Position numbers and translations under genes: made by a program. Under the pieces are notes generated by a model. The model made no database searches and had not been told where the DNA came from. It worked only from the letters and a program-made list of their open reading frames with translations. From an uncultured Acidobacteriota bacterium (lineage in GTDB: Bacteria; Acidobacteriota; Terriglobia; Acidiferrales; UBA7541), in assembly GCA_963811805.1 (NCBI GenBank), contig CAWESU010000003.1, positions 324,435-364,434 of the forward strand: 40,000 nt of DNA, given 5' to 3'. The stretch's first letter is position 1; the number at the start of each line of letters is the position of its first letter. Positions 18,430 to 40,000 of the stretch are shown here, piece by piece.

Positions 18430-18570
18430 CCTTCGTTTAGCATGGGCCTATCGGCGCTCATGAGATAGATGGATCGTCCCAAGCTCTTCCTATTCGCGCT
18501 GCCTTGTGCGCGATGTCTTCGCTTTCGGTTTTTCGAGTTTCGCTTTTCGAATTTCGTTTTGCCTTTTCTC

Positions 18571-21674: not shown

Positions 21675-23107
21675 AGAAGTTGTCCCGCCTTTAGTTGAAA
21701 CCTAAAAAAGGAAGCAGCGGCTCTCGACCCGAACTCGGATAGAGTTCGGGTTGCAAACTCTATTTTCAGAGGAGAGCCGCTGTGAGGAAAACCTATCAGG
21801 GAATGAAAGACAAGTGCAAGGAGAAGTTCGAAGTGCTTGGCAAGCGGGAGTTGCTGGAGGTGCCGCTGCCGATGGTCGAAGTGTGGGAGGAGCTGCAAGC
21901 CCAGGTGGAGCAGTTGACCGGGGCAGCGGGGCTGCGCATCATCGGCACGATTCTGGAAAACGAAGTGACCCGGCGCGTGGGACCGCCACACCGGCCGGAT
22001 CCGGTGTCGGGTGCCGTGCGTTGGGGGCGCCAGCCGGGTTACGTGGTGTTTGGCGGACAGAAAGTAGCCGTGGAACGTCCGCGGGTGCGCACACGAGAAG
22101 GTCAAGAAGTGGAGCTGGACAGTTACGCGCGGTTGCAGCACGACGGACGGCGGCAGCGCGCGGTGCGCGAAGGCATCGTCGCGGGACTGACCTCACGGAA
22201 CTATCGCCGCGCGGTGCAAAGCGTGGTGGATGGCTACGGGATCGAGAAGTCCAGCGTGAGCCGGGAGTTCGTAGCGGCCAGCGTGGCGCAGTTAAAAGAA
22301 CTCTGTGAGAAGAAACTCGACGGCGTGGACCTGGTGGCCATCCTGATCGACGGGATTCATCTCGGCAAACAAGTGCTGGTGGTGGCGCTGGGCATTGAAA
22401 TCAGCGGAGAAAAACACGTTCTGGGGCTGTGGCAAGGGGCGACAGAGAACACTACGGTAGTGAAGGAGTTGCTGGAGGACCTGGTGGTACGCGGCCTCGA
22501 TCCCGAGCGGCGTTACTTGTTCGTGATCGACGGAGCGAAAGCGTTGCGCGCGGGGATCGAGCGGGTGTTCGGCGAACGCGCCGAAGTGCAGCGCTGCCAG
22601 ATCCACAAGCGGCGGAACGTAAAAGAACATCTGCCGCAGAGCGCCCAGGGCGATACGGACCGGAGAATCCGCAACGCCTATGCGATGACCGAGTACGCGG
22701 CGGCCAAAGCGGAACTCGAGAAAATCTTCCGGCAACTGGAGCGCATCAACCCCAGCGCGGCACGGAGCCTCGAAGAAGGGCTGGAAGAAACCCTCACCGT
22801 GCACCGGCTCGGTGTGGGAACCCTGTTGCGGAGAACGCTGTCCTCAACCAATCCCATCGAGTCGTGCCTTTCGACCGTCGAGAAAGTAGCGCGCAACGTA
22901 AAACGCTGGCGTCAAGGAGAGCAAGCCTTGCGCTGGACGGCCACCGGGTTGTTGGAAGCGCAAAAGAAATTCCGGCGAGTGAAAGGCTACCGGGAACTGG
23001 AACTCTTGCATCGCCGGATGAACCCGTCGTTGACTCAACAGGAACAGGTCGCGTAACGTGCAGAAAGTCGAGAGCCGCTGCTTTCAACTAGAACTGGGAC
23101 AACTTCT
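21675..23107 (+). mobile_element. IS256-family insertion sequence (1433 bp)
   Basis: Terminal inverted repeats: AGAAGTTGTCCCGCCTTTAGTTGAAA on the left, and the reverse complement of the right end AGAAGTTGTCCCAGTTCTAGTTGAAA. A 15-nt subterminal match GCAGCGGCTCTCGAC is also present. Flanking direct repeat GAAAAAC at 21668-74 and 23108-14. Single transposase ORF. Confidence 0.85.
21782..23056 (+). CDS. IS256-family (Mutator-like) transposase
   Basis: 424 aa. ILIDGIHLG and FVIDGAKAL acidic blocks, plus VQRCQIHKRRNVKEHLP (the C-x2-H..RN signature of IS256 transposases). Alternative ATG at 21803. Confidence 0.85.
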   Translation: MRKTYQGMKDKCKEKFEVLGKRELLEVPLPMVEVWEELQAQVEQLTGAAGLRIIGTILENEVTRRVGPPHRPDPVSGAVRWGRQPGYVVFGGQKVAVERPRVRTREGQEVELDSYARLQHDGRRQRAVREGIVAGLTSRNYRRAVQSVVDGYGIEKSSVSREFVAASVAQLKELCEKKLDGVDLVAILIDGIHLGKQVLVVALGIEISGEKHVLGLWQGATENTTVVKELLEDLVVRGLDPERRYLFVIDGAKALRAGIERVFGERAEVQRCQIHKRRNVKEHLPQSAQGDTDRRIRNAYAMTEYAAAKAELEKIFRQLERINPSAARSLEEGLEETLTVHRLGVGTLLRRTLSSTNPIESCLSTVEKVARNVKRWRQGEQALRWTATGLLEAQKKFRRVKGYRELELLHRRMNPSLTQQEQVA

Positions 23108-26047: not shown

Positions 26048-26444
26048 GTCATCCTATTCAGGTTTGTTCACGCTACTATACTATAATACCGGGCGGTGTG
26101 TAGGGCTCCCCTCGCACTCTAGCCTGAAAATTATCCGTGTCTCACAAAACGTTGTGACGGGCGCGAAGCTACACCCACAGCGAGATCGAAGTTCAGGCTG
26201 CCGGGCGGTCTCTTCTCTTGCGAGAGTTCCTGCGCGAAACCACAAAAAAAGATCGAACGGCGAGCAGGCAGAGGGGTGGTCCCTTTTTCGCATGCATATA
26301 CGCATACTCCGCATACGTCTGACGGGATAGGAGACAGAAGCCCGCAAAGTTGCACCCCCTGTAAGGCGTTGCGTTTCTTGGAGGGATCGCGTTCAGTAGG
26401 ATTCAGGCTCTGAAAGCATTTCTGGGGGTGGAATAGAAACTAAC

Positions 26445-26612
26445 CTAGCGGCGCTTTCTGGCAAGTGTCTGACGGGCTGCGATCTTTGCCAAACCAAGCA
26501 CGATCCCTGAATTTGTCATCACTGCGTACCGCCAACGTTTCTCAGCCGCGCGCCTTGGCAAATCAAAATCCTCTTGGGTCATCTTCACATTTACCTGAAT
26601 CGTGCGTTTCAT
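26445..26612 (-). CDS. possible ribbon-helix-helix small protein (55 aa, below the ORF-track cutoff)
   Basis: My translation: MKRTIQVNVKMTQEDFDLPRRAAEKRWRYAVMTNSGIVLGLAKIAARQTLARKRR. A beta-strand followed by two helices is compatible with CopG/Arc folds. No partner gene and no clear RBS. Confidence 0.25.
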   Translation of the reverse strand: MKRTIQVNVKMTQEDFDLPRRAAEKRWRYAVMTNSGIVLGLAKIAARQTLARKRR

Positions 26613-26784
26613 GCCTTCTTGTATCTGCTAAACACAGAACGCCAGCAACGTTACTATTCGTACTGAAAATGCTTCCTGTACGTTCGGCCAGCTTACCGCT
26701 TAGGCATTCTGGTGCTCGACAGCGAGTTGACCAAAACGATCCGAGCTACACTGACGCAAGCATCCCACAAGGAGAGATAAACCG

Positions 26785-27402
26785 ATGAAACGGACGCTCG
26801 CAGTTTCAACTACGATCATTTTCATGCTCATGGTTACATCAGCCACTTTCGGACAAAGCACCACCGAGACGAAGAAGGAGCCAGTGAAACCTGTGGCTAA
26901 AACATCGGCTCTAGCAAGGACAGCGCCAAAGGAATCTCCAGATCGCGCTAAACCGGCCCAGTCATTTCACTCGTTGTTTTCCAGGAAACAAAAGGACGAG
27001 CCGGATCAACACGCGCGAGAAGCTCGCGGAGTAGAAGAAGTCCATCCGGCGGCTCGCCCACTTGAACCTCAGCACAGTTTTTACGAAGATCACTTGCAAG
27101 CAGCGCATGCGATTCGCGTTGAGGATCAACTGCATTTCGATGGGCGGCGCTTTGATGATGCCTATTTCGCAGCCAATTTCGGAATAAACCATTCACTCGT
27201 TGTGACGCCCGTCATTGTTCCTGGCGGAGGCACGTATATGTGGTTTGGCTCTTTTTGGTTCTCAGCACCCTCCATGCCAGTGGGATTTGTTTGGACCCGC
27301 CCGGTTTGTATTGAATATGACGCTGTCAACGGCTTTTATTACATGACTGACCTTTCAACCGATCCGCCGACCTTTGTGAAGGTTGAAGCCGTAGTGCAGT
27401 AG
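26785..27402 (+). CDS. hypothetical secreted protein
   Basis: GGAGAG RBS. Signal peptide MKRTLAVSTTIIFMLMVTSATFG. No recognisable domain. Confidence 0.6.
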   Translation: MKRTLAVSTTIIFMLMVTSATFGQSTTETKKEPVKPVAKTSALARTAPKESPDRAKPAQSFHSLFSRKQKDEPDQHAREARGVEEVHPAARPLEPQHSFYEDHLQAAHAIRVEDQLHFDGRRFDDAYFAANFGINHSLVVTPVIVPGGGTYMWFGSFWFSAPSMPVGFVWTRPVCIEYDAVNGFYYMTDLSTDPPTFVKVEAVVQ

Positions 27403-27457: not shown

Positions 27458-28030
27458 ATGAAGATAATTTTATCAGCTTTATTTCTTGGGCTGATTGCTA
27501 GCTTGGCGGTGGCGCAAGACCAACCACCGGCTCCCCAGTCCACAGTTTTTATGGGACACCAATTGGGCGAAACTGTTCAGCAATGGTTCAGCGCCAGCGA
27601 TGAGCCGAAAAGATGCGCGGAGTGGAAGAGGAATAAGGCTGACAACAAACTGTTTTGTAAAGTGGCAGACGACATCGCGCAAGGGAGATCGGGTATGCTC
27701 GATACCAGACAGCCGGGCGACAGCGTACTCGCAAGAGATCGCTGGTATTTTCAATATGGCAAACTCGCTGCACTAATCGGAACTTTTCTCCCCTACGACA
27801 AAACCCTCGCGGAACTTCGTGAAAAGTACGGCCCGGAAACGAAAAAGCAGGCAAAACTGGTCGTGCACGTGCTAAGCCCGACGTACCCTGTCTTTGGCGA
27901 AAAGTGGGCCATGCCCGACGGCACACTACTTTTCTTGGTAGAGGATACGCGTGCCGTCAATCATGCGAATCTCGTGATAAGCACGCAAGCGTATATCGAC
28001 CAACAGCAAGACGCAAACAATCCGTTTTGA
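27458..28030 (+). CDS. hypothetical secreted protein
   Basis: AGGAGAGA RBS. Signal peptide MKIILSALFLGLIASLAVAQ. No recognisable domain. Confidence 0.6.
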   Translation: MKIILSALFLGLIASLAVAQDQPPAPQSTVFMGHQLGETVQQWFSASDEPKRCAEWKRNKADNKLFCKVADDIAQGRSGMLDTRQPGDSVLARDRWYFQYGKLAALIGTFLPYDKTLAELREKYGPETKKQAKLVVHVLSPTYPVFGEKWAMPDGTLLFLVEDTRAVNHANLVISTQAYIDQQQDANNPF

Positions 28031-28116: not shown

Positions 28117-29022
28117 TTATTGAGGGAATAGATTTGGCGTTACACCGGAAGTCGAGCAAATTGCCTCAAGTTCTGGATAGTGCTCAATCAAGGTTGCGGG
28201 TGCCTTTACAGGACGTTTGGTAAGCAAATGGATAAGCTGAAGAGCGTTTACGATGGCTTTGCCCCGGTAATGATTGTTGGTGATTACGAACGTGGACTCG
28301 GAGTTTTCGGCGACGGTGTGGATGCGCTCCGCCCAAGGTTCAAGCTCTTTTCCGCTGTATAAATAGTTGTACCGATCCTCTGACGGCATGTTCGGATCGT
28401 CAGAAAACCAAGTATCGTACCGGCGTCCGTGAAGCCGGATGTAGCCCACTGGCGCTGTCGCGCGGTCTGACGGCCTGAGCGAGCGTCCAATCACCGGCTG
28501 GTCAACATTGCAAAAGCCGACGCCGCACTCCCCCAGCAGATCATAGAAGTCCTTCTCATTCCAGGATGCGTGACGAACCTCAACGACGAGGGGATATTCA
28601 GCGAAGCGAGCAAACAGTTTTTTCAAGTAACCAAGATTCTCCGGCGTGCGATGGAACGAGAAAGGGAATTGCGCAAGCACCGCGCCCAGTTTGTCGGCGT
28701 CCCGCAGCGGATCAAAACCGGCACGGACGGCCCGCTCATCTTCTATGTTCGCGTTCCGTTCGTGAGTGAATTTCTGCCAGAGTTTCGCTGTGAATAGGAA
28801 TCGTGGATTCTCCGCAACAAAGTCGATCCACTTCCGTGCCGTGTCCGGCTCGATTGGGGAGTAAAAAGAGGTATTGAGTTCGATGGCATCGAAGTACTGC
28901 GCCAAGTAAGCAGCTTCGTGAAAACCGGAAGGGCGGCGTTTGGGATAGACGATTCCCGCCCAGTCTTTGTACGACCATCCGGCGGGGCCGATGCGAACTG
29001 GCGCGGGTTTTGGAGATTCCAT
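28117..29022 (-). CDS. DUF72 (YecE-like) family protein
   Basis: IGPAGWSYKDWAGIVYP N-terminal signature, FDAIELNTSFY, and VEVRHASW, typical of DUF72. Confidence 0.8.
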   Translation of the reverse strand: MESPKPAPVRIGPAGWSYKDWAGIVYPKRRPSGFHEAAYLAQYFDAIELNTSFYSPIEPDTARKWIDFVAENPRFLFTAKLWQKFTHERNANIEDERAVRAGFDPLRDADKLGAVLAQFPFSFHRTPENLGYLKKLFARFAEYPLVVEVRHASWNEKDFYDLLGECGVGFCNVDQPVIGRSLRPSDRATAPVGYIRLHGRRYDTWFSDDPNMPSEDRYNYLYSGKELEPWAERIHTVAENSESTFVITNNHYRGKAIVNALQLIHLLTKRPVKAPATLIEHYPELEAICSTSGVTPNLFPQ

Positions 29023-29050
29023 TTACTTTCGCCTTTTATTCGTCTACAAT
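29022..29050 (+). promoter_or_regulatory. sigma70-like promoter candidate for the recA-like/PolB-1 operon
   Basis: TTTACT (29022-27), 17-nt spacer, TACAAT (29045-50), 33 nt upstream of ATG 29083. Confidence 0.3.
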
Positions 29051-29065
29051 ACTCCTGCTCTGCCC
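29048..29065. repeat. left arm of candidate terminal inverted repeat
   Basis: AATACTCCTGCTCTGCCC. It matches the reverse complement of 39307-39326 at 17 positions, with two 1-nt indels and one mismatch. Confidence 0.3.
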
Positions 29066-29082
29066 TTAAGAGCGCCAACATT

Positions 29083-29703
29083 ATGACTCTACCCCTCGCG
29101 TCAACCCGCACGGAACAGCATTCTTCTCTGAATCCGTGGGTTCTCCCACTTCGACAGTTGTCCGTTTTCTATGGCTCGCCGCAAGTGCCGCGTCTCTCGC
29201 ACTACTTCCTGCCGAGACTTTTGCTGAATGATGAGCGCGTTCTGTTTTTAGACGGAGCCAATCAGTTTGACCCTCTTTTGCTTGCTCGGTTTGCCCATAA
29301 GCGAGGGCGTGACAGTTCCTCTTTCAATCGGCTCGTGCGTGTTGCGCGGGCTTTCACATGCTTTCAGTTGACGGAGCTAATCACACGCACGCCAAATTTC
29401 TTGAACAGTTTTCCGGCGAAGGTTTTGGTGATTACGGCTATGCCCGATTTGTTTTTCGATGAAGACGTGCGGGAGCATGATGCGCGAGCATCGTTTGAAC
29501 ACGCGCTAGAAGGATTGCGGCAGATTGTACGCGATTCAGTTCCGCTTGCCGTTTTCTCAGATGCGACTTCCTTCCACACGGGGCGACTAGGGTTCTTCCA
29601 TCAACTCACCAAACAGGCCGACAGGCTCTTGAAAGTCGAAATACGAGCGGATGACAAACTCGCCTTCACTTGCGAGAAAGAGACGCCCCAATTACCAACC
29701 TAG
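29083..29703 (+). CDS. RecA/RadB-fold protein with degenerate P-loop (ImuA-like in architecture)
   Basis: LSVFYGSPQVPRLSHYF sits where RecA/RadB proteins have GxxGxGKT. Also RVLFLDGANQFDP, VRVARAFTCFQLTELI and a Walker-B-like KVLVITAMPDLFFDE. ATG 29083 is chosen because the longer track ORF runs antisense into DUF72. Confidence 0.55.
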   Translation: MTLPLASTRTEQHSSLNPWVLPLRQLSVFYGSPQVPRLSHYFLPRLLLNDERVLFLDGANQFDPLLLARFAHKRGRDSSSFNRLVRVARAFTCFQLTELITRTPNFLNSFPAKVLVITAMPDLFFDEDVREHDARASFEHALEGLRQIVRDSVPLAVFSDATSFHTGRLGFFHQLTKQADRLLKVEIRADDKLAFTCEKETPQLPT

Positions 29704-29724
29704 TCGTTTTGCCGGAGAGATGTT

Positions 29725-30078
29725 ATGGGCCGCACAGTTCCCACTTTTGTTCAACTCGTTCAGCAAACCATCCAACGATGGGCGAAATTCCGCCGCGCTC
29801 TTAGACGCGAAGATCAGCCTCACTTCGACAAACTATTCCTTTCGGTGAGAGGGTACACACAAGCGGCAACCTACCAATGCAGTGACAATCCGATGGAAGC
29901 CATTCTTCTTTCCGTGGCGCTCGATCAAGAGAAACGCATCGCGGCACTTGAAAAGCTCGTGAAGGGAAGCGAAGAAAACCATGCGACTGAACGGCTGGAT
30001 TCTCGATCTCTATCCCGGCCAACAAGGAATGACAATTTGGCTGATCGACGCGAATCAGGCTCACTACCGTTTAAGTGA
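29725..30078 (+). CDS. small hypothetical protein, 3' end overlaps PolB-1 by 98 nt
   Basis: GGAGAG RBS 5 nt upstream. MGRTVPTFVQLVQQTIQRWAKFRRALRREDQPHFDKLF... is helical, with no recognised family. Confidence 0.45.
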   Translation: MGRTVPTFVQLVQQTIQRWAKFRRALRREDQPHFDKLFLSVRGYTQAATYQCSDNPMEAILLSVALDQEKRIAALEKLVKGSEENHATERLDSRSLSRPTRNDNLADRRESGSLPFK

Positions 30079-32200
30079 CAGCTTTGCTCCGGCTTTCTAT
30101 GTTTCAGGAGCCGCCGAGAAACTCTCGCACTTGCAACGGTCGTTGGAGCAACAGCGCGCTCCCGTTATTTGCCAGTCCACGGAGCGAATTGACCTCTGGC
30201 AGAACAGGCTCCGGCAAGTTCTGAAAATCTCCGTCCAATCACCGGTTGAATTTGTCCGATGGGGGCGTTGGGTACATCGTTTCGATTCTCGCCTTCAGCT
30301 TTACAACAGCGACCTCATGGTTGCTTCGCTTTATTGTTGGCAGACAAATGTCTTTCCCCTTGCGCGCGTCGAAGTTGAAGCAGACGAAAACGGGAACGTA
30401 CAACGCATGGAACGGCGCGACGATGAATGGGCGCTGGATTACGAGCTTCCGCCGCTCAAGATTATGCAGATTCGGCTTGTGGGTTTTTCACGAATTGACC
30501 CGAACCACGGTCGCCGAGCGGCACTCGAAATTGAAAGCGAGGGCCGCTGCTTCGAGTTAGATGAAAATGACGAACCGCCCGCGCTCGGTTTTGCTCGTTT
30601 GTTGAAGCGCGAAGACCCGGACGTGATTTTATCCGAGTGGGGCGACGCGACAATCTTGCCGCTATTACGCGAGCGAGCCAGCCGCCTGAAACTTTCCTTG
30701 CAACTGAATCGCGATTCTTCCGTTCCCGTGCAACAAAGCAAGCCGCACAGCTTTATGAGTTATGGGCGGATTCTTTTCAAAAACAGCGCCACTACACTGT
30801 TTGGGCGTTTGCACGTGGACAAACAGAACTCTTTCATCTCCGAGAAATGCGACTTCGCCGGCCTTTGGGAATTGGCACGCATCACGAAGCTGCCCGTCCA
30901 ATATGCGGCGAGAACAACCACGGGAACGGGAATCTCCTATATGCAGATGGAGCTTGCCTATCACGATGGCGTGTTGATCCCGGAACAAAAGGCCGAGCCG
31001 GAAGACCCAAAGCAACCCGATGAAATACTGGCCGCAGATCGTGGCGGATTGGTTTTTGTGCCGAAGCTGGGTTTTAGGCCGAACGTCGCAGAGTTGGACT
31101 TTGTAAGTGAATATCCAAGCATCATGGCGCGATTCAATATCTCGCCAGAAACCGTGAATTGCTCTTGCTGCCCCGATGCCCCGCGCATTCCGGAACTCGG
31201 CTACCGTGTCTGCCATAAGCGACGCGGAATCACAAGTCGGATTGTCGAACGCCTCATTGCGAAACGCACGGAATGGAAGCGGCGGCTGCCAACCTCGCCA
31301 TTGGAACTTGTGCAACGCTACAAATTGCAGCGCGATTCACTCAAATGGCTTCTCGTTTGTTGCTTCGGCTATACGGGCTACAAAAATGCACGCTTCGGCA
31401 AGATTGAAGCGCATGAAGCCATCAATGCCGTGGCGCGCGAGACTCTACTTGTCGCAAAAGAAATCGCCGAGAGTCACGGTTTCGAGTTGATTCACGCACT
31501 AGTGGACTCACTCTACGTTTGGAAAGAACATGCCAGCCGCAAGGACTACGAACAACTCGCCCATGAGATCGAGGGCCGTACGGGACTTCCGTTAGCAATC
31601 GAAGCCGTCTATCGCTATGTGGTGTTTCTCCCATCTCGGCAATATGCGGATGTCCCCGTTCCGAATCGTTTCTTCGCTGTCGGTGAAGATGGTGAACTGA
31701 AAGTTAGAGGTCTCGAATGCCGTCGCCATGACACGCCGCCATTCATTGCACGAATGCAGCGTGAAGTGCTCTCGATTCTGGCGGAAGCCACTGACTACGA
31801 TAGCTATCTCAACAAGCTCGAAACAGCGCGAGAAGTTTGGCACAACTACGAAGAGAAACTGACGAACGGAGACGTGGACGTACAGGACTTGGTAGTGAGT
31901 AAACGAATCACACGAGAACCGCGTGAATATCAGAAGGCTAATCTTACGGCCATTGCCGCACAGCAGCTTTTCAGTTGCGGTGTCAAGTTACGCCCCGGAC
32001 AGGCGGTTGAGTACGTTATCACCAACGCAGACGCCGCCGTTCCCAATGATCGCGTTTGCGCCTTTCCGTTGTGGGGAGGGTGGCAAGGATACGACCGGCA
32101 CAAGTACAGAGCAATGCTGCAAGAGGCATTCGCGCCGTTCCTCGCCATTGCGCAGAAATATGATGGCTCGATAGCGATTCCGGCGTTGTACTTGGCCTAG
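29981..32200 (+). CDS. divergent family B DNA polymerase, exonuclease motifs lost (PolB-1)
   Basis: Archaeal/Pol II-like N-terminus (GWILDLYP...FAPAFYVSG). Motif A LDFVSEYPSIM. Motif B KWLLVCCFGYTGY. Motif C reduced to HALVDSLYV. The KxY region is NRFF. The ExoI site is LKIMQIRLVG with no D/E, and the ExoII site is WGDATILPLL. Confidence 0.8.
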   Translation: MRLNGWILDLYPGQQGMTIWLIDANQAHYRLSDSFAPAFYVSGAAEKLSHLQRSLEQQRAPVICQSTERIDLWQNRLRQVLKISVQSPVEFVRWGRWVHRFDSRLQLYNSDLMVASLYCWQTNVFPLARVEVEADENGNVQRMERRDDEWALDYELPPLKIMQIRLVGFSRIDPNHGRRAALEIESEGRCFELDENDEPPALGFARLLKREDPDVILSEWGDATILPLLRERASRLKLSLQLNRDSSVPVQQSKPHSFMSYGRILFKNSATTLFGRLHVDKQNSFISEKCDFAGLWELARITKLPVQYAARTTTGTGISYMQMELAYHDGVLIPEQKAEPEDPKQPDEILAADRGGLVFVPKLGFRPNVAELDFVSEYPSIMARFNISPETVNCSCCPDAPRIPELGYRVCHKRRGITSRIVERLIAKRTEWKRRLPTSPLELVQRYKLQRDSLKWLLVCCFGYTGYKNARFGKIEAHEAINAVARETLLVAKEIAESHGFELIHALVDSLYVWKEHASRKDYEQLAHEIEGRTGLPLAIEAVYRYVVFLPSRQYADVPVPNRFFAVGEDGELKVRGLECRRHDTPPFIARMQREVLSILAEATDYDSYLNKLETAREVWHNYEEKLTNGDVDVQDLVVSKRITREPREYQKANLTAIAAQQLFSCGVKLRPGQAVEYVITNADAAVPNDRVCAFPLWGGWQGYDRHKYRAMLQEAFAPFLAIAQKYDGSIAIPALYLA

Positions 32201-32262
32201 CGATGATCGCTCCCCACCGCTTTGCAAGAGAACGTCGCTGAGAGCATATATGAGTCAAATCG

Positions 32263-33828
32263 TCAGCACTGAATCTCTTGTGCGCTTCTCTTACAACCAG
32301 TGAATCCAACTAACTCCGCGAGCTTTCTCCAATGCCTCGGATGCGGGACGCGCTTTCCTGTGCGTATGTCCGTCGCATATGGCTTCGAGACTGCAAGAGT
32401 CAACGCGATGGCTGGAATCGTAAAAGCCGCTAGCTTTGGCCGAATCTCTTCGCGGTAGACTCTTTCAGTCAACCACTTGGGTAAGTCAGAGGACTTCCAC
32501 AAAGTTCTACCCGTCATTTGCCGACGCATTGTCTCAGAACGGCGCGCCTGAGCCTTCGCGTTGTGGGCCGTTGTTCTTCCGAGTTGGGCAACTTTCAGAA
32601 TTGCTGTCTTGGATTCGTTTAACGCACATGATTTACACAGAGTATTGCCACAAGTGATCGCCGTACCGCAGATTCGGCAGACAGACGGCGGATGCGGCAC
32701 CGGAACCGGGCGAAGACTCAAATCTTCTCCGGTGCGGCTTCGGCGCTGCTGTGTCAACCGCGTGGCCGGGCCAGCCGCTACGGCAGGTTTTCTCATGGTT
32801 GACCACAGCTTACGGCATACGCTCTCTGCTACGGGCGCGACGGCCCAAGCCCAAGTCTGCGCGGTTTCCGAAAGCCGCGCTGCAAATGAACCGACTAGCC
32901 GACAATTGCCATCCGGCTGTTCAAAAAACCATTCTCGGCGCAGTGGCTCACGATTGATCCAGTCGAACACGTAAGCGTCAACTCGCGGGCGAATCGGTTC
33001 CATCAGATCAGACGCGAGGCTGTCGCGCGTCCGGCTATCGAAATGCAATACGCCAAGACCGGGATCGAGGCCAAGCGCGGCAGCGGCTAACCGAGCTTCG
33101 GATTCAAGCAGCGCGTAAAGATAATTGAGCATTGCGTTCGGCGGATTCACAGCCAATCGGGGAGAACCTGTGAGCGGCGAAGCACGAAGCCCGAATTTGA
33201 GCCAATGATCCGGTACGCGACGAAGATCAGCCTTGGCGAACATGATCGGTACGTTGCGCCATGCACCCCAGTATGCTTTTGCTGCTTGGGACTCGAAAAA
33301 CCGCAAGTCATCAATCGAATTCGCGGATGGAAGCTTTTCGCGAGCACTGGCAATCTGCGCAGCCACACCCGTATCGTGAAACTTTTCGCGAATCAGCCGC
33401 TCTTGCGCAACGAGCTTTTGATCTAGCAATTCTTGCGAAATCTGCAAACCCACTTCGGAGCGATACGCCAGAGCTTGGGCGCGTCGCAATCGAGCATCGG
33501 ACGGACGAACTGGGCCAGTTGTGGCGAGCACGGAACCCTTGCGATCCAGCATCACAAAGCTAGCGTCTTGATCGGCCAGCCAGCGAAGCGCGGAGAGAGT
33601 GACGGTGCCATCGTTGCCGATCACCACAAGCCGCCTGATGCCATGCCCGATGCGGGCAAACCGCGCAGTAGTTCGGCGCGAGCCGATGCCGTCATGGATG
33701 ATGAGATGTCCTCGATCCACGCGGACATCAATGCCATAGCCGAATAGCGTCACGACTCCATGTCTCGGTTCAATCGGGATGAAATTGCAGTGCTCGGAAA
33801 GTTGCGGTACCGTTTGCGTAGCTGCCAT
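32263..33828 (-). CDS. cas1: Cas1 homolog (casposase-like) with C-terminal zinc ribbon and basic/HTH-like extension
   Basis: N-domain LFGYGIDVRVDRGHLIIHDG...LVVIGNDGTVTLSALRWL. Catalytic blocks FFESQAAKAYWGAW (E), NAMLNYLYALLESE, and LGVLHFDSRTRDSLASDLMEPIRPRVD (H, D). Extension carries CRICGTAITCGNTLCKSC. Confidence 0.85.
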   Translation of the reverse strand: MAATQTVPQLSEHCNFIPIEPRHGVVTLFGYGIDVRVDRGHLIIHDGIGSRRTTARFARIGHGIRRLVVIGNDGTVTLSALRWLADQDASFVMLDRKGSVLATTGPVRPSDARLRRAQALAYRSEVGLQISQELLDQKLVAQERLIREKFHDTGVAAQIASAREKLPSANSIDDLRFFESQAAKAYWGAWRNVPIMFAKADLRRVPDHWLKFGLRASPLTGSPRLAVNPPNAMLNYLYALLESEARLAAAALGLDPGLGVLHFDSRTRDSLASDLMEPIRPRVDAYVFDWINREPLRREWFFEQPDGNCRLVGSFAARLSETAQTWAWAVAPVAESVCRKLWSTMRKPAVAAGPATRLTQQRRSRTGEDLSLRPVPVPHPPSVCRICGTAITCGNTLCKSCALNESKTAILKVAQLGRTTAHNAKAQARRSETMRRQMTGRTLWKSSDLPKWLTERVYREEIRPKLAAFTIPAIALTLAVSKPYATDIRTGKRVPHPRHWRKLAELVGFTGCKRSAQEIQC

Positions 33829-33834
33829 TGGAGC

Positions 33835-34977
33835 TTAACCCTCCGTGGTAGTTAGGGGCGCGTTCGGTGTTCTAGCACCGGCGCGTCCCGCTTTTGCCGT
33901 AACCCTTATTTTACCCTTCCGTTTAGGAACACGCGCCTTTTTTCTCGGTAGTGACAGCTTCTCTCGTGAATCGCGAACGTTATCAAGCGAGGTTTTAGGG
34001 CGAGAAACATTCCTTAGATAAGCAGATGTGATCGCATAAGGAATGAATGCCTGCTGATGCTTGGATTTTAATACCTCTTCGACTGCAAGCCTGAAGTCGC
34101 GCCACTGCTGACAAATCGAGTCACGCGGATAATTTTCCTTCTTTGGTAAGTTCAGAAGCGCCGCCCGGAACCTCTCCGCTAAAGATTTGCCTCTCCTCGC
34201 GCCGACACGCAGGAACAGACGCTCAACGAGTCGGAAAACAACATACGGATGTTGCGCGAAGGAATCCGCTGGCATCTTTGAACATCGAGTGTCCGATTGC
34301 CGCCATCGCATGTAAGGCAAGCCTGCCAGAGCGTTTGCAAGGTTGAGCGGCGTGAGTGCGCGTTTTCGCTTTCCCTCACTTCGCAAAAAACTCAGTAGCT
34401 CAGAACAATACAAATACACTTCTCCGTTGCGGAGCTGATCTTCGAGCAAGACGCACTCCCGCTGTTTCGCATCAAAAGTCTTTTCGTGGTGCCTCAATTT
34501 CCTACGACACCGGCGACGTTCGTTCCGAAAAGTAGTTTTGTCCTTTTCGTCCGCTTGTTTGACCGCGTTCGCTGCCTCAGCGCAAGCCTGCTGAAGCCCT
34601 GGATACTTTCGCTGCATGTCCTGAAGCTCATACCTGAGTCTGGTGCTTGTTAGGGCGTATTTTCGGAGTTCTCGTACCGTTGCGTGTTGCGGCTCCCCTC
34701 GCAAGAAAGCTCTAGCGTGATCGCAGTGCGGTTTGTCCACAACTCGCTTAAAGACCCTTTGCACATCCGTGATCGTGCTGCTTCTGCGCTTGCGAATCCG
34801 CAATAAGTGCCAGCCAATTTCGGGCCAGCATTGCTCGAAGAATACTTGCCACTGATTCCGGCTGCCCAAAAGAGAGTTATCGGGGATTGTTGGGCGACCC
34901 CCCTTATTAGGTGTTTCCGGTTCCTCCGAAACTGTGTCCATAGGGTCGAAACTAAAATCCCCGCCAGAAAACTCCAT
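33835..34977 (-). CDS. hypothetical basic protein, co-operonic with cas1
   Basis: 380 aa. AGAGG RBS. Stop lies 6 nt before the cas1 ATG. KGGRPTIPD near the N-terminus and a K/R-rich tail (RKKARVPKRKGKIRV). No recognised family. Confidence 0.6.
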   Translation of the reverse strand: MEFSGGDFSFDPMDTVSEEPETPNKGGRPTIPDNSLLGSRNQWQVFFEQCWPEIGWHLLRIRKRRSSTITDVQRVFKRVVDKPHCDHARAFLRGEPQHATVRELRKYALTSTRLRYELQDMQRKYPGLQQACAEAANAVKQADEKDKTTFRNERRRCRRKLRHHEKTFDAKQRECVLLEDQLRNGEVYLYCSELLSFLRSEGKRKRALTPLNLANALAGLPYMRWRQSDTRCSKMPADSFAQHPYVVFRLVERLFLRVGARRGKSLAERFRAALLNLPKKENYPRDSICQQWRDFRLAVEEVLKSKHQQAFIPYAITSAYLRNVSRPKTSLDNVRDSREKLSLPRKKARVPKRKGKIRVTAKAGRAGARTPNAPLTTTEG

Positions 34978-35137
34978 CGCAATTTGCCTCTATCGCCAGA
35001 AAACCGACTTTTGATGTGTGCACATTTCCCGAAAACCCCCATTTTTGCTGCTCTTGCCGGGCCGTGCAGGTTCGGAATACCCGGTGTAAAACGGATACGT
35101 CTGCACCGATTCTCTCACGATGAAAGTGAGGAAAACC

Positions 35138-35710
35138 ATGAGGCGGTCACGGAAATACAACAGGGCAAGAAAAAGCAAGAAGCCCAGCCTAAGTCGGAGT
35201 CGGAGAGTTCGCGTAGCTGCGCCACGAACGGCTAAGCAATTCTTCGCGAAGCCGAATGAGTTTCAAGAGACGTGGACTCGTGTAGCACACGTCGTTTCCA
35301 AAATGCGAACGGAACGAACCTCTCTTCGTGAAGCTTCGCGCGAATTCGGCCTCGATCCTCGCATTGTGACCCGGCTCGGCAAGTCGGCTTTGCGTAAGCG
35401 GAAGAATGGGCAGTACGTCGCAAAGCGCAGCGACAAGCTCTTGCGCATTCTCGCGATTCCTACAGCCGATGGCGTGCGCGAGATCGCGATTCGGGACTCG
35501 CGCCAAGCTACCATTCTCGGAAAGTATTGGGCCGCAGTCCAAAAGTATCTGCAAACTGGCGATGCCTCAGGCTTAAAGAAATTCCATCGCAAACGCATTA
35601 CCGATGCGAGCCGCAGGCGCGTGCCGCTAATCACAGACCAAGCTGAGTTAGACCGGCTCGGCTCTGCCGGTGTGCTGTCCTTTGAATCGCTTTATGCAAA
35701 GGTCGCCTGA
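35138..35710 (+). CDS. hypothetical HTH-containing basic protein
   Basis: ATG 35138 follows a GAGGA RBS; the track start 35120 is also possible. K/R-rich N-terminus. HTH-like TSLREASREFGLDPRIVTRLGK. Confidence 0.55.
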   Translation: MRRSRKYNRARKSKKPSLSRSRRVRVAAPRTAKQFFAKPNEFQETWTRVAHVVSKMRTERTSLREASREFGLDPRIVTRLGKSALRKRKNGQYVAKRSDKLLRILAIPTADGVREIAIRDSRQATILGKYWAAVQKYLQTGDASGLKKFHRKRITDASRRRVPLITDQAELDRLGSAGVLSFESLYAKVA

Positions 35711-36202
35711 TTGAGAAGAAAGGTACAAATTCGCGATCCGATTGCGGCACATCAGCGCAAAGCCGTTGCCGTGCGCCGCGTTGGATTTGATGCGCAATGC
35801 GCGTGCGGCGAATCGCGGCCTGAAGCACTTTTGAGCGGAAGTAATCCGGCCATCTGCGCTGCTTGTGATCGGAAGCGACGCGGCAAGGCAACGCTGGATC
35901 GCCATCACATCGCGGGCAAGTCGAACAGCGCGGTCACAATTCCAATTCCTGTTAACGATCATCGCGCCCGACTCAGCGCCGATCAACACGATTGGCCGAA
36001 GCAAACGCTGGAAAATCCGAACGGCAGTCCGCTACTGGCTGCCGCTGCATCACTCCGGGGATATTCGGATACAACCATCTATCTCCTCGAAACGTTACTG
36101 CATCCCGAAATGCTCGAAGCACTGGATGCGCTCTTGATACAAAAGCTCGGCCCGGAATGGTGGATTGGTACGCCGATGGAAAAATATGCGCAGAGACGAT
36201 AA
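35711..36202 (+). CDS. HNH-like zinc-finger nuclease domain protein
   Basis: CACGE...CAACDRKRRGKATLDRHHIAGKSNSAVTIPIPVNDHRARL fits a Cys4 knuckle plus the HH...N...H layout of the HNH/His-Me finger. TTG start abuts the upstream stop. 3' end overlaps the PolB-2 start. Confidence 0.5.
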   Translation: MRRKVQIRDPIAAHQRKAVAVRRVGFDAQCACGESRPEALLSGSNPAICAACDRKRRGKATLDRHHIAGKSNSAVTIPIPVNDHRARLSADQHDWPKQTLENPNGSPLLAAAASLRGYSDTTIYLLETLLHPEMLEALDALLIQKLGPEWWIGTPMEKYAQRR

Positions 36203-39200
36203 CCACAAACCGAGCAAGGCTTTACTTCCGCTCGCTGTCCGCATCTACCCGGAACCCGAAAAGCCGAAGCAAGAACAGCGAGCTGATCGCCCGCTGCGGC
36301 ACTGGCGTTGTCCAGATGCGATGCTGGTTTTCGACACGGAAACGAGAACCGACGCAACCCAGCGGCTTACTTTTGGCAGTTACCGATTTCTTGTTGCAGG
36401 GCAATGTCGCGAAGAGGGCTTGTTCTATGCTGATGATTTACCGGCGAGAGACCTAGCGATCCTCAAGGATTACATTGCGAGACATAAAGCCGATGTCGCA
36501 GACAGCAAGGCGGAGCTTCGCTTGCTCACGCTTTCCGAATTCTTGGATAAGTTCTATCGGGCTGCGTACAAATCTCGCTGCTTGCTTGTGGGATTTAATC
36601 TTCCGTTCGACTTATCGCGCATTGCCGGGGACGTTGCACCGGCTCGCGGTCGTTTCGCAGGCGGCTTTTCATTGGGACTCTGGTTTTATACTGATAAGTC
36701 GGGACGGAAACGACGGCATCAAAATCGGCCCCGAATCGGAGTCAAACAGATTGACGGCAAGCGGGCACTGAAGGGATTCACTGGGCAGAATAATCCTGAC
36801 AAATCAGACCTGATCCCCGAAGGTTCGGAAACCGGCGGTGCACCTGAAGATGGCTATAAGTTTCGAGGCCACTTTCTCGACTTGCGCACGCTCGCGTTTG
36901 CGCTGACAGATCAGAGCTACTCCCTCGAATCCGCGTGCGAAGCATTCGGTGTCGAACATGGAAAACAACGTGCCTCTCGGCACGGCGAGGTCACAGAAGA
37001 ATATATTGATTACAACCGGCGCGACGTTCTGGCCACGTCAGAATTAGCTGAAAAGCTTTCCCCAGAATACGAAAGGCACAGACTGTCACTTCAGATAACG
37101 AAAGCATATTCACCCGCTTCCATCGGAAAGGCATATCTGCGAGAAATGGGCATTGAGCCGATTCTCAAAAGGCAGCCGGACTTTCCCAAGAAATATCTTG
37201 GCTTTGCGCAATCGGCATTTTTCGGCGGGAGAACCAGCGCACATATCCGCAAAGTTCCCGTCCCAGTCGTTTACACCGATTTTCTTTCGATGTATCCGAC
37301 AGTGAACAGCTTAATGCGGCTGTGGCGGTTTGTGATCGCTCGCGAAATTAAGGTTGTTGAACATTGCGAAAGAGAAACCACCCGTTTTCTGGAAGAAATA
37401 AAAAATAATCCCCCTTGCTTGTTCGATCCTCATACGTGGGAACGGTTAACCGCCTTTGTGAAAGTCATTCCCGATGGCGATATTCTGCCAACCCGGAGCA
37501 AATACAATGCGGCCAGCAATGATTGGCAAGTGGCCGTGAATTATCTTTACGCGGGAGAGCACAAAGCAAATAAAGCTCTATGGTTTTCTCTTCCCGATGT
37601 AATTGCTTCCGTGCTCCTAAGCGGCAAGATTCCGACAGTCGTAAATGCATTTCGCATTGAAGCGCATGGCGTTCTTGATGGATTAGAGCCAACAAAGCTG
37701 TACGGAGCAATTGAAGTTGATCCACGAAAGCAGGATTTCTTCAAAAGAGTAATTGAAGAAAGAAAGCGGCTTGGTTTTCAATCGAACGTCTCCCCCAATG
37801 AGAAAAAGAAACTCGATAAGGCATTGAAAGTTCTTGCGAATGCTACCAGCTACGGAATCTATGCGGAAATGAACCGGCAAGAGTCAGATCACAAAAACAT
37901 TAGGGTGAAATGTCACGGGATAGATGCAGAGCCTTTCACCTGCTCCGTTGCTCACCCTGATGATCCCGGCGAGTATTGTTTTCCGCCGATGGCTTCCCTG
38001 ATAACCGGAGCAGCCCGGCTGATGCTCGCATTATTGGAGTACTCCGTCACAAAGCTGGGTGGCACATACGCTATGGAAGATACCGATTCAATGGCGATTG
38101 TAGCGACTGAGAACGGCGGAATGATTCTATGCCCCGGCGGTTCTCTCAAAACAAACAATGACCGCAAAGTGGTAAGAGCACTATCTTGGAAGCACGTTCA
38201 GCAAATCGCGGATCGTTTCGCTGCTTTGAATCCGTATGCAAATGATGCAGTACCGGGATCAGTCCTCAAACTCGAAGAGGATAATTTTGATCCGGTAACA
38301 CACAAACAGCGCCAGCTTCACTGCCTCGCAATTTCTGCAAAGCGATATGCACTTTTTCTGTGCAATTCAAAGGGCGAGCCTGTTCTTCTTCGAGACGGAA
38401 TCAATAACCGTGCCGACAGGTGGTCAGAACACGGTCTAGGCCATCTTTTGAATCCAATGGACTTGGAAAATGAGGATCGCAACTGGATCGCGCAAACTTG
38501 GCTGAACATCATTCGCAAAGCTCTTGGATTATCGGCCAAACGGTTAAATTTTGAGAATTGTCCCGCAGTAGGCCGAATCACCGTGAGCAGTCCTGCCGTC
38601 ATGCTTCCGTTAAACAAAATAAATCAACGAAAGAATTATGCAAATCAAATTAAACCATTCAATTTTCTTTTATCGTGTCACGTGAAGCAGCTTGGCCATC
38701 CCATCGGCAGTGATCCTGAGCATTTTCATTTAATCGCGCCGTATGAATCCGATTCAAAACGATGGACAGCAATCGAATGGATAGATCAATACACCGGAAA
38801 AAGGTACAGAATCACAACAACTGAACCACACGGAAACCGGCACACGGCGCGCGTGAAAACGTATGGAGATGTTCTAATCGAATATGAATTTCACGCCGAA
38901 ACAAAGAATGCAGATAAAGAGGGGAATCCATCTGGAAAACAAACTATCGGCCTTTTGCAGCGGCGGTATGTTCAAATAGACCAAATCAAATACATCGGAA
39001 AAGAATCCAATAGCATAGAAGATGTCGAATCAGGATTGGCGCATTCCGAAGCCGATGTTTACACGCACTATCCCGATCCCCGGCGCGATGAGTGGGAAAT
39101 AAAGATTAAGCCCGCTTTGAGAAAAGCCGCGCTGTCCGTTCTGGAGAAAGAAACGGGCCTTTCCCGCCGAACTCTCATTTATGCGCGGACGGGTAAGCGC

Positions 39201-39263
39201 AAGCCACACCAAAAACACCGGAAATTGCTGGTTTCGGCTCTCCGAAAACTGAACCTTATCTGA
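36186..39263 (+). CDS. family B DNA polymerase with intact exonuclease and polymerase motifs, protein-primed-like architecture (PolB-2)
   Basis: ExoI LVFDTET, ExoII VGFNLPFDL, ExoIII YIDYNRRDV, pre-A FFGGR, motif A YTDFLSMYPT, motif B KVLANATSYG, motif C AMEDTDSMA, KxY ISAKRYAL. A C-terminal extension of about 290 aa ends in HTH-like ETGLSRRTLIYARTGKRK. Start is ATG 36186 or TTG 36165. Confidence 0.85.
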   Translation: MRRDDNHKPSKALLPLAVRIYPEPEKPKQEQRADRPLRHWRCPDAMLVFDTETRTDATQRLTFGSYRFLVAGQCREEGLFYADDLPARDLAILKDYIARHKADVADSKAELRLLTLSEFLDKFYRAAYKSRCLLVGFNLPFDLSRIAGDVAPARGRFAGGFSLGLWFYTDKSGRKRRHQNRPRIGVKQIDGKRALKGFTGQNNPDKSDLIPEGSETGGAPEDGYKFRGHFLDLRTLAFALTDQSYSLESACEAFGVEHGKQRASRHGEVTEEYIDYNRRDVLATSELAEKLSPEYERHRLSLQITKAYSPASIGKAYLREMGIEPILKRQPDFPKKYLGFAQSAFFGGRTSAHIRKVPVPVVYTDFLSMYPTVNSLMRLWRFVIAREIKVVEHCERETTRFLEEIKNNPPCLFDPHTWERLTAFVKVIPDGDILPTRSKYNAASNDWQVAVNYLYAGEHKANKALWFSLPDVIASVLLSGKIPTVVNAFRIEAHGVLDGLEPTKLYGAIEVDPRKQDFFKRVIEERKRLGFQSNVSPNEKKKLDKALKVLANATSYGIYAEMNRQESDHKNIRVKCHGIDAEPFTCSVAHPDDPGEYCFPPMASLITGAARLMLALLEYSVTKLGGTYAMEDTDSMAIVATENGGMILCPGGSLKTNNDRKVVRALSWKHVQQIADRFAALNPYANDAVPGSVLKLEEDNFDPVTHKQRQLHCLAISAKRYALFLCNSKGEPVLLRDGINNRADRWSEHGLGHLLNPMDLENEDRNWIAQTWLNIIRKALGLSAKRLNFENCPAVGRITVSSPAVMLPLNKINQRKNYANQIKPFNFLLSCHVKQLGHPIGSDPEHFHLIAPYESDSKRWTAIEWIDQYTGKRYRITTTEPHGNRHTARVKTYGDVLIEYEFHAETKNADKEGNPSGKQTIGLLQRRYVQIDQIKYIGKESNSIEDVESGLAHSEADVYTHYPDPRRDEWEIKIKPALRKAALSVLEKETGLSRRTLIYARTGKRKPHQKHRKLLVSALRKLNLI

Positions 39264-39277
39264 ACTGACTCCCCCTA

Positions 39278-39511
39278 TTATGTAGCGTATTTACAATTTC
39301 CATTCCGGGCCACAGCAGGAAGTATTCCGGTTGTGCGCCGTCCCGGACACCCCGCGAATCGGCATGGCACAAGTTCCTGCTTCTGCAACTGGCGAAGATA
39401 GCTAGACATCGAACGCGGAAAACGGTAGCGCACCGCATCCCGATATGGAACAAGAATCGCTAGTCTCTTCGCTTGATTAACATTTGTCGCAGCCGAATAA
39501 ACCGTTCCCAA
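39278..39511 (-). CDS. possible AlpA/excisionase-like HTH protein (weak)
   Basis: YRFPRSMSSYLRQLQKQELVPCRFAG loosely resembles the AlpA/MerR-type HTH (..sRStiYrl...g.fP.p.k.G). TTG start, no RBS seen, and it overlaps the candidate right inverted repeat. Confidence 0.2.
   Translation of the reverse strand: MGTVYSAATNVNQAKRLAILVPYRDAVRYRFPRSMSSYLRQLQKQELVPCRFAGCPGRRTTGILPAVARNGNCKYAT
39307..39326. repeat. right arm of candidate terminal inverted repeat
   Basis: GGGCCACAGCAGGAAGTATT, whose reverse complement is AATACTTCCTGCTGTGGCCC. It lies 43 nt after the PolB-2 stop. Confidence 0.3.
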
Positions 39512-39631
39512 GCGACACCTGTACGGGAGTCCAGCTTACCCTTCAGGCATAAATCCTACTGAAAATGCCGCCTCAACGCCAAGCACCCTCACAATTGTGC
39601 ATATCGCTGAAACCCAAAGGAGAAGATCCAA

Positions 39632-40000
39632 ATGAAGGCAATAGCACTGGCAACGACAATTATCATTTTCGTAATTGCTCCCTCTGCGTTCGCAGATCAT
39701 AGCAAGACAGTTCCCATGACTTGCGAAGCGGCCATCCATGAAGCAGAAGCCGTGGTCGTCGCGCAAAAACACGGTTACAAGGAACCCGGCCCACAAGACA
39801 TGGTTCTAAAAATCACTAGCTCCAATGTCGGCAAAACCGTGGGAGCGGCGGTGATCTTTCCGCCAGCCTTACTTTGGTCGCACCCGAAATTCGGCGCACT
39901 GACGTTCAGCGCATCAACAGATGGAAAATCGTGCATCGTCAAATCCACTGGTCAACCAGCGGATCAGGCGCTCAAGGATTGGGACAAAGACAGTAACTAG
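39632..40000 (+). CDS. hypothetical small secreted protein
   Basis: AAGGAGAAG RBS. Signal peptide MKAIALATTIIIFVIAPSAFA. Stop TAG at 39998-40000. Confidence 0.6.
   Translation: MKAIALATTIIIFVIAPSAFADHSKTVPMTCEAAIHEAEAVVVAQKHGYKEPGPQDMVLKITSSNVGKTVGAAVIFPPALLWSHPKFGALTFSASTDGKSCIVKSTGQPADQALKDWDKDSN

Follow-up and report, generated by a model that had tools for sequence, protein, structure and literature searches.

The 40,000-nucleotide (nt) stretch analyzed here (the window; positions 324,435 to 364,434 of contig CAWESU010000003.1, assembly GCA_963811805.1, from an uncultured Acidobacteriota bacterium) carries a casposon at its right end. Casposons are transposons that integrate by means of a Cas1 enzyme, and the machinery for CRISPR adaptation has been proposed to descend from them; a few dozen are known, and these are mostly archaeal. 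The element is a real, recently mobile 14-kb casposon of a soil acidobacterium (Candidatus Acidiferrales, Acidobacteriota). Very probably it is one 13,980-bp copy, in which conserved core machinery is combined with a variable arm, and the operon for a PolB2-type DNA polymerase in this arm is captured cargo. A sequence-only reading had flagged the span 29023-39540 as a casposon-like module with three operons (+, -, +). The map of open reading frames (ORFs) shows the same three operons, and the casposon-like character is borne out by terminal inverted repeats (TIRs), a 14-bp target site duplication (TSD), and polymorphic insertion sites. The flagged span covers the genes listed in that reading, but it misses about 2.7 kb of the element on the left and, on the right, about 0.46 kb up to the window end plus 303 bp beyond it.

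The database loci compared with the window are designated by L-numbers: L001-L011 are copies of the element, L012 and upward include its relatives, and L091-L094 are casposon-free. The exact Cas1 protein is encoded on 15 contigs, which come from assemblies of Candidatus Acidiferrales and from assemblies of raw reads. BLASTN showed that a block starting at window position 26320/26324 and reaching the window end is 100% identical in L001-L006, and that the left flanks of the window, L001, L002, L003, and L004 are mutually unrelated. The left TIR, GGGATAGGAGACAGAAGCCCGCAAAGTTGCACCCCCT, is located at 26324-26360 on the + strand and occurs once in the window. The right TIR is the inverted GGGATAGGAGACAGAAGCCCGCAAAGTTGCACCCCCT with 34 of 37 positions identical, and it ends the element in L001, L007, L009, and L011, about 303 bp past the window end. 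A TIR search had been proposed in the sequence-only reading, and it succeeded in the window for the left end and in the identical copies for the right end. The TIRs are imperfect and about 37 bp in length, and two relatives (L012 and L083) bear near-identical ones. The length of 13,980 bp was measured between the TIR ends in the identical copy L001; accordingly, the casposon begins at window position 26324 and continues for about 303 bp beyond position 40000.

The host flank CGCATACGTCTGAC (26310-26323) abuts the left end, where the shared identical block starts, and is presumed to be the left copy of the 14-bp TSD. In L001, a perfect 14-bp TSD, GCCGCCAAGTTGAC, is present on both sides of the element (L001:3512-3525 and 17506-17519). 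L011 provides a further right-end junction for the identical element. L004 has the element in the same target upstream of hrcA as L001, but in the reversed orientation, and its hrcA-side flank is about 85% identical. In total, at least six distinct insertion sites were observed in Acidiferrales assemblies for one 100%-identical element, indicating recent movement. Two further copies, L008:2047-6439 and L010:870-4926, are near-identical (99.8-99.95%) and diverge about 130 bp past the window end. Beyond the divergence they contain a 78-aa ORF followed by a gene for a TIG-domain protein of about 950 aa, and no right TIR is present within these contigs. They are either truncated, immobilized copies or a longer variant.

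The casposase gene is located at 32263-33828 on the - strand. Profiles, alignment, and a structural model indicate a Cas1 domain, a CxxC...CxxC zinc ribbon, and a C-terminal helical/helix-turn-helix (HTH) domain. The protein matches Pfam Cas_Cas1 with 146 bits and TIGR00287 with 114 bits. E242/E244, H262, and D274/E277, the candidate catalytic residues, do not vary among 51 homologues, in agreement with the earlier statement that the catalytic positions of this Cas1 homologue are conserved. The zinc ribbon is invariant in the family, and the C-terminal domain is helical. The casposase of Methanosarcina mazei (6opm) is the best match both in the PDB sequence search and in the fold comparison of the AlphaFold model with Foldseek; the runner-up in both is the Cas1 of A. 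fulgidus. Databases label the protein as "CRISPR-associated endonuclease Cas1".

Relatives were collected by searching a Cas1 alignment against one genome per species. There are 175 relatives in these species-representative genomes, and the gene content was counted in the best 79 loci. All 79 are from Acidobacteriota and belong to Acidiferrales, Terriglobales, Bryobacterales, and Vicinamibacterales. The 1032-aa family B polymerase is encoded beside cas1 in 74 of the 79, p196 in 49, the HNH-like protein in 22, and p380 in 13. Seven genes of the window copy are found in none of them: those for the 739-aa polymerase, the RecA-like protein, the DUF8156 protein, the DUF72 protein, p190, p205, and p122. 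TIRs with 14-bp TSDs (two of them 15 bp) were located by script in 23 relatives, and the TSD is perfect in 21 of the 23; among these is L025, whose ends were placed about 18 bp too far in by the script. These 23 elements span 12.0-18.6 kb, and their TIRs begin with GGG, mostly GGGrTA. ORF clustering of 24 complete elements showed that the core genes come in a fixed order (PolB, HNH-like, p196, variable ORF, Cas1) between two arms. Each element has arms of its own. The PolB2-type operon is also missing from close relatives whose Cas1 is 80-85% identical and whose TIRs are near-identical. At least five genomes contain two diverged casposons (L013/L018, L026/L041, L039/L065, L047/L074, and L059/L063), and one of these pairs is on the same contig.

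The casposon's own family B polymerase (1032 aa; 36165-39263, +) is very divergent and is recognized by its position beside cas1 in the relatives and by its motifs. Its Pfam DNA_pol_B_2 match is exactly at the gathering score (25.8 bits). DNA_pol_B_2 is matched by 9 of 15 members of its family and DNA_pol_B by none of the 15. The family alignment shows conservation of Exo I (FDTET), Exo II (NLPFD), Exo III (YxRRD), and motifs A, B, and C. The KxY motif, likewise conserved, reads SAKRYAL (SAKRYALF in the family, with K726 and Y728 invariant). Motif C is EDTDS, and several family members bear CDTDS, the motif that names a casposon PolB cluster (Kazlauskas 2020, PMC7544198). No significant PDB sequence match was found for this polymerase or its family profile.

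The other core genes are characterized to different degrees. The gene at 35711-36202 (+) encodes an HNH-like zinc-finger protein recognized at the motif level. Its pattern CxxC...HH...(C/N)xxH is invariant in comparison with the genes at the same position in relatives, and the latter give weak matches to the HNH clan. Considering this motif, the HNH identity of the product is plausible. The conserved core protein p196 (35120-35710, +) is encoded in 22 of the 24 complete elements and always lies between the variable slot and the HNH-like gene; neither a Pfam match nor an HTH was detected in it. The variable slot upstream of cas1 contains p380 here (33835-34977, -) and unrelated ORFs in other elements.

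The PolB2-type operon occupies 29083-32200 on the + strand and includes three genes. The first (29083-29703) encodes a protein with a RecA/Rad51 fold and without Walker A. Its Pfam Rad51 match is weak (E 0.008), but its AlphaFold model, built with 37 homologues (pLDDT 77, pTM 0.80), matches RAD51/RadA with a Foldseek E-value of 1e-9 and a TM-score of 0.71. An invariant YGxPxxPRLSHYFLPR is present at the Walker A position. The description of a P-loop-less RecA-like protein in the sequence-only reading was therefore correct. The second gene (29725-30078) encodes a DUF8156 protein; the Pfam DUF8156 match is on the identical called gene, and a DUF8156 gene is also upstream of the polymerase in L092-L094. 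The third (30029-32200) encodes a family B polymerase of the archaeal PolB2/bacterial "G2" type, supported by DNA_pol_B and NF004416. Its ORF (29981-32200) corresponds to 739 aa, and the probable start at 30029 gives 723 aa. The DNA_pol_B match is 96 bits, and the NF004416 match is 381 bits, below the cut-off of 516 bits. With the DNA_pol_B_2 match of the 1032-aa protein, the presence of two family B polymerases is confirmed. The PDB sequence matches, to archaeal family B polymerases, are confined to the polymerase domain (residues 297-697), and no exonuclease domain was matched in the N-terminal 296 residues. Motifs A to C are intact, and motif C is IHALVDSL (IHALVDSLYV), with a single Asp and a His. 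The operon is 100% conserved among the copies.

Widespread among acidobacteria, the PolB2-type operon is a unit that was taken up as cargo into the variable arm. The polymerase is 75-84% identical to thousands of acidobacterial proteins. The three-gene operon, with a RecA-fold protein of about 206 aa, DUF8156, and the polymerase, occurs without Cas1 in other acidobacterial genomes (L091-L094). In L094, DUF72 is in the same adjacent position as in the window, and the DNA identity is 76-77% over 28127-28997 and 29183-32140. In L092 and L093, DUF72 is about 6 kb from the operon. In L091, a 172-aa gene is upstream of the polymerase, and no DUF8156 or DUF72 gene is called, yet the DNA homology spans the operon. 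Near these casposon-free operons there are genes for ATP-dependent DNA ligase/WGR proteins, an ImmA/IrrE-type peptidase, ParB-like proteins, or an integrase fragment. The distribution suggests a damage-response or island context for the RecA-fold/DUF8156/PolB2-type cassette outside casposons.

The junction between this operon and the core is marked by a remnant of another gene. ORF55, a small basic protein of 55 aa (26445-26612, -), is 94.5% identical to ORFs in L012 and L013 and is read as ribbon-helix-helix-like from its sequence; no PDB sequence match was found for it. In six of the seven relatives that have such a gene, it lies 15-72 bp past the cas1 stop and is convergent with cas1. In the window, the intact ORF55 is inverted and near the left TIR, 5.6 kb from this ancestral spot. 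A degenerate second copy, truncated at its 5' end, remains by the cas1 stop (32152-32250, +) and is alignable to the 3' ends of ORF55 in L012 and L013. These closest relatives share the TIRs, the core, and a 260-bp segment (window 26446-26707) that contains ORF55 and its upstream motif. The homology to the host-type operon ends at 32140, and the alignment of the polymerase to P0122 stops at F720; its last 19 residues have no homology to those of its relatives. The last 19 codons of the polymerase gene are supplied by the truncated ORF55 region, and its native C-terminus is lost. The truncated ORF55 and the replaced polymerase C-terminus (32140-32250) are the scar of a cargo-arm rearrangement. 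ORF55, p205, p190, DUF72, and the polymerase operon are thus read as one cargo arm that was rearranged and that meets the backbone at this scar. It is because none of the 79 relatives has the PolB2-type block, the operon exists without a casposon, the arms are unique, and the scar is present that the block is considered to be cargo.

The remaining arm genes are of the same nature. p205 (26785-27402, +) and p190 (27458-28030, +) are secreted-type proteins with no Pfam or PADLOC match. The DUF72 protein (28117-29022, -; Pfam DUF72, 188 bits) is cargo of host type. In the right arm, p122 (39632-40000, +) is a further secreted-type protein, and from the window end the element runs about 303 bp further to the right TIR. 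A PADLOC scan of the element's own proteins gave no defence match; the "HEase" match of the 739-aa polymerase, to a model for homing endonucleases, covers the polymerase domain only. An intergenic motif with direct repeats (26658-26707, +) is located between ORF55 and the cargo genes and is conserved in L012 and L013. A second, permuted copy is upstream of p122 (39518-39578); the permuted repeat is CCTGTACG..CCAGCTTACC..AGGCAT plus TACTGAAAATGC. Each copy is followed, after about 80 bp, by a gene for a signal-peptide protein (p205 and p122, respectively). The direct repeats were also considered as att sites, and this was rejected as both are within the TIRs and each is about 80 bp upstream of a gene. 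Since the motif is kept beside ORF55 in relatives, a regulatory role is more likely, and the motif may be an operator for the 55-aa protein.

Several points weigh against the reading of the element as one complete casposon with captured cargo. The right TIR and the second TSD copy of the window copy are beyond the window, so its completeness is deduced from the identical copies. The comparison of flanks by BLASTN gave exact junctions through the identical copies, but no empty site was recovered in the metagenome contigs: a 28-mer had no match, and a 20-mer had four unrelated chance matches. All copies are from metagenome assemblies, in which repeats may be misjoined. This worry is countered by the junctions, which are exactly at the TIR tips, and by the target motif, which is visible wherever the sequence extends into the relevant flank (L001/L004, L002, L003, and L011). 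The margin of the casposase match over CRISPR Cas1 is small in PDB (74 vs. 67 bits; Foldseek 6e-18 vs. 5e-16), and the casposase assignment is from these nearest PDB matches. The sequence-only reading had listed an HNH-like protein together with HTH/basic proteins; the zinc motif is invariant and weak matches exist, but the HNH-like protein has no significant Pfam or PDB match, only sub-threshold matches to the HNH clan and McrA, and the HTH evidence, a weak HTH_31 match and the helical C-terminus of Cas1, is not statistically supported. Finally, with its intact motifs A-C and its perfect conservation among the copies, the PolB2-type polymerase may contribute to the replication or gap repair of the element, although nothing in the family requires the operon.

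The last point leads to the first of three explanations that had been offered before, a casposon variant with two polymerases. Here the PolB2-type polymerase and its RecA-like partner would be transposition accessories, for instance in closing the 14-nt gaps or in copying damaged or excised element DNA. The operon is indeed within the TIRs and moves with the element, it is invariant among the copies with the polymerase motifs preserved, and the gap filling after casposase integration is without an assigned enzyme (PMC9939771). However, its polymerase, RecA-like protein, and DUF8156 protein are absent from all 79 related casposons, close relatives included, the operon is common in acidobacterial genomes outside casposons and exists there without Cas1, the polymerase C-terminus is damaged by the junction, and the arms of the family generally carry unrelated cargo. 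This variant is thus quite unlikely. It is also very unlikely that two mobile elements, adjacent or nested, are present, with the PolB2 block from another integrative element inserted in or fused with the casposon. The rearranged arm is compatible with such an origin, as are the casposon-free loci: in L094 an HTH_17 gene and a fragment of a phage integrase come after the homologous operon, and in L092 it is among genes for an ImmA/IrrE-type peptidase, a ParB-like protein, and HTH proteins, resembling an island. However, the arm has no integrase, no att repeats, and no second TIR pair; one TIR pair encloses all 13,980 bp, which move as a unit and are flanked by a single TSD. The divergent arrangement of ORF55 and the cargo genes is the same layout as in relatives with other cargo.

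It is extremely unlikely that the Cas1-polymerase locus is domesticated or immobile, or that Cas1 is CRISPR-associated with an array beyond the window. Such a reading would fit the database name of the protein, and one relative, L054, has cas3/5/7/8 and a CRISPR array beside the gene. The immobile locus is contradicted by the TIRs, the 14-bp TSD, and the identical element at six or more sites. As for CRISPR association, the contig that extends past the window (L001/L007) shows hrcA-grpE-dnaJ, not cas genes, and the CRISPR-Cas genes of L054 are within casposon TIRs as cargo. Profile searches of the major ORFs in the window and of the genes called on the identical contigs gave no cas2 or other cas family, and no CRISPR array was found in the window with TRF and Rfam, as the sequence-only reading had stated for the 40 kb. 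The identity of the 1032-aa polymerase as a pipolin polymerase (piPolB) was considered and rejected, as there is neither a tyrosine recombinase nor a tRNA. piPolB carries an altered KxY motif, and the canonical SAKRYAL argues against it. None of the three explanations offered before accounts well for the second polymerase. A single casposon copy with the PolB2-type operon as cargo remains the preferred reading, and the capture of this cargo explains the atypical gene set with two polymerases.

The target sites of the family have a common composition. Among 23 reconstructed sites, TSD positions 10-14 are TTGAC (21-23 of 23 at each position). The hexamer TAnnnT is located 17-18 nt after TTGACN in 21 of the 23, and in 18 of those 21 it is TAnACT. 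As a background, 226 other TTGAC in the same host flanks were inspected; TAnnnT is present at this spacing in 6 of them (2.7%) and TAnACT in none. The enrichment is significant (Fisher p 4e-23), also when orthologous sites are collapsed to 15 groups (binomial p 3e-19). Examples of the motif among complete elements are L001, L012, L043, and L087. A long ORF begins within about 40-170 nt downstream in 17 of the 23 sites. Ten downstream genes were picked, eight were scanned with Pfam, and five were informative, with hrcA taken from the contig annotation. The downstream genes identified are hrcA, two aminoacyl-tRNA synthetases, and genes for a TolC-like protein, a GAF protein, and a DUF4932/TPR protein; the sites lie immediately ahead of housekeeping genes. 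Five genomes have an insertion upstream of the DUF4932/TPR gene, a sixth has one at a homologous gene, and the site upstream of hrcA is used in two. Insertions are intergenic and in both orientations. tRNA and non-coding RNA genes were considered as targets and rejected, since none is near any site (tRNA scan and Rfam).

Judged by sequence, the target looks like a complete sigma-70-type promoter. Through the duplication of the -35 box in the TSD, the gene downstream should retain a -35 box, the spacer, and the -10 box. Alternatively, the motif could be a bipartite recognition site analogous to the "leader" motif that the Aciduliprofundum boonei casposase needs (PMC6614799). In the proposed mechanism, the Cas1 homologue would act as the integrase and join the 3' ends of the TIRs to staggered positions 14 bp apart. 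The gaps would be filled by host or element polymerases, and the exonuclease-proficient 1032-aa PolB would copy the element. The TSD, duplicating the -35-like box, would leave the downstream host gene with a complete promoter core. The promoter-like site choice might be due to direct recognition of a bipartite "leader-like" motif or to the use of promoter-bound RNA polymerase. Whether these elements represent a large, currently active, and apparently undescribed casposon lineage of soil Acidobacteriota that selects complete promoter-like sites, cuts them such that the -35 box is duplicated, and shuttles host and anti-phage cargo is evenly balanced in our judgement.

The arms of other complete elements encode various defence proteins. 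Matches among their largest arm genes include Dsr1 (SIR2) in L025 and L076, PifA/KAP NTPase (250 bits) in L043, PDC-M54A (704 bits) in L084, nSTAND3 in L020, an LmuA-like nuclease-NTPase in L087, a PNP-WD40 protein in L072, and a protein kinase in L026. The cargo of L054 (L054:369-13784) is of another kind. The TIRs of this casposon are identical over the 80 bp compared, and its 14-bp TSD is AAATCCCATTTGAC. Within the TIRs, a type I-C interference module with the genes for Cas5c, Cas8c, Cas7c, and Cas3 (7578-12917) directly follows the casposase gene, and the CRISPR array after it (13106-13468) is composed of six identical 32-nt repeats of type I-C-like sequence and five spacers. No cas2 or cas4 is evident in L054. 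Its spacers do not match any locus compared in this study.

The casposon is in a region of lower GC content. GC content is 0.46-0.56 at 26-40 kb and 0.55-0.64 at 1-23 kb, consistent with the earlier remark that the block has lower GC than the respiratory core. The fall begins near 23 kb, about 3 kb before the casposon end, suggesting that the casposon is in an already variable region. The left 26 kb encodes cytochrome c maturation proteins, ferrochelatase, a Rieske/cytochrome b complex, a multihaem cytochrome, haem A synthesis enzymes, NAD synthase, an IS256-family transposase, and TIG-domain proteins. In window 20966-26047, a TIG-domain ORF overlaps at its end with the IS256-family (Transposase_mut) gene (21782-23056), after which comes a 987-aa TIG/beta-propeller gene. 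A short tandem array of CACTAGC (4.6 copies), within a looser 14-nt repeat, is located at 18568-18640, upstream of the NAD synthase gene.

The element draws its interest from the size of the lineage, its recent activity, the promoter-like target, and the cargo, which includes CRISPR-Cas in one relative, more than from the second polymerase. Two features of the family looked new, the insertion at promoter-like sites and the defence genes in the arms of relatives. No paper linking casposons to Acidobacteriota was found in the literature searched; an earlier mention is possible, as a 2017 review was outside the search. An abundant bacterial casposon family, with perfect TIR/TSD signatures, 100%-identical copies at several sites, and a target defined by sequence, provides many natural replicates for the target choice of a Cas1 integrase, and the promoter-like target parallels CRISPR leaders, which carry promoters by the integration site. 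The arms show that casposons can move whole operons, a translesion-type polymerase cassette here and Dsr1, PifA, and other defence genes elsewhere. The CRISPR-Cas effectors beside the casposase in L054 bear directly on the scenario for the origin of CRISPR; if the association is true, L054 would be a living case of the link between casposons and CRISPR from which CRISPR adaptation has been proposed to originate. Thousands of "CRISPR-associated Cas1" calls from soil are probably casposases, and they would inflate the cas1-based prevalence of CRISPR in Acidobacteria. The element differs from a CRISPR-Cas adaptation module in having neither Cas2 nor a CRISPR array in the window or the extended identical contig.

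The cargo polymerase can be compared with known polymerase systems. ImuA is a RecA-fold protein without ATPase motifs that is encoded beside a specialized polymerase. The operon resembles the ImuA-ImuB-DnaE2 mutasome in this pairing, but its polymerase belongs to family B, DUF8156 is the middle gene, and no ImuB/Y-family gene is present. By analogy with archaeal PolB2, the most likely function of the PolB2-type polymerase would be damage-tolerant or translesion DNA synthesis for the carrier cell. To our knowledge, no activity has been measured for any bacterial PolB2/G2 member. Known here from sequence, the polymerase is placed with archaeal PolB2 (Dpo2) and bacterial "G2" by its motifs: in motif C a single Asp is combined with a conserved His, and the exonuclease region at the N-terminus is diverged (PMC7544198). 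In PolB2/G2, Exo I is not conserved and Exo III is missing, G2 is nested in archaeal PolB2, and a translesion role has been proposed (PMC7544198).

Pipolins are likewise PolB-encoding integrative elements with a small core, and the defence-rich cargo of the relatives resembles theirs (Redrejo-Rodriguez 2017; Mateo-Caceres 2024, PMC11551731). Pipolins depend on a tyrosine recombinase at direct-repeat att sites, often in tRNA genes, in contrast to the Cas1, TIRs, and TSD found here. Family 2 casposons (Aciduliprofundum boonei) and those of M. mazei share with the present element a 14-bp TSD whose terminal nucleotides are conserved, insertions in either orientation, and recent mobility inferred from polymorphic sites (PMC4779613). 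They are archaeal and often at the 3' ends of tRNA genes, whereas the acidobacterial target is promoter-like and upstream of protein-coding genes. In vivo movement has been shown for one archaeal casposon (PMC10359463).

The closest architecture is that of the family 3 casposons (PMC4046053; PMC4779613), a likeness in gene layout, whereas casposon families are defined by Cas1 phylogeny. Both have a bacterial host, a zinc-binding domain and a helical/HTH domain at the Cas1 C-terminus (optional fusions in family 3), PolB, an HNH-type protein (recognized here at the motif level), small conserved proteins, TIRs with TSDs, intergenic insertion, and heterogeneous extra genes. Family 3 further includes a conserved HTH protein, and no HTH was detected in p196. 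The family 3 element AceAut-C1 was reported to have the same zinc-ribbon/HTH architecture of Cas1. Recent work uses 48-54 reference casposons of all families (2023-2024), which are reported to be poor in defence genes. The acidobacterial lineage differs from family 3 in that long cargo arms lie to either side of its core and in that its composite target is promoter-like. It also differs in number: four family 3 elements were described in 2014 (PMC4046053), and the acidobacterial lineage has 175 matches in species-representative genomes, all examined ones from Acidobacteriota.

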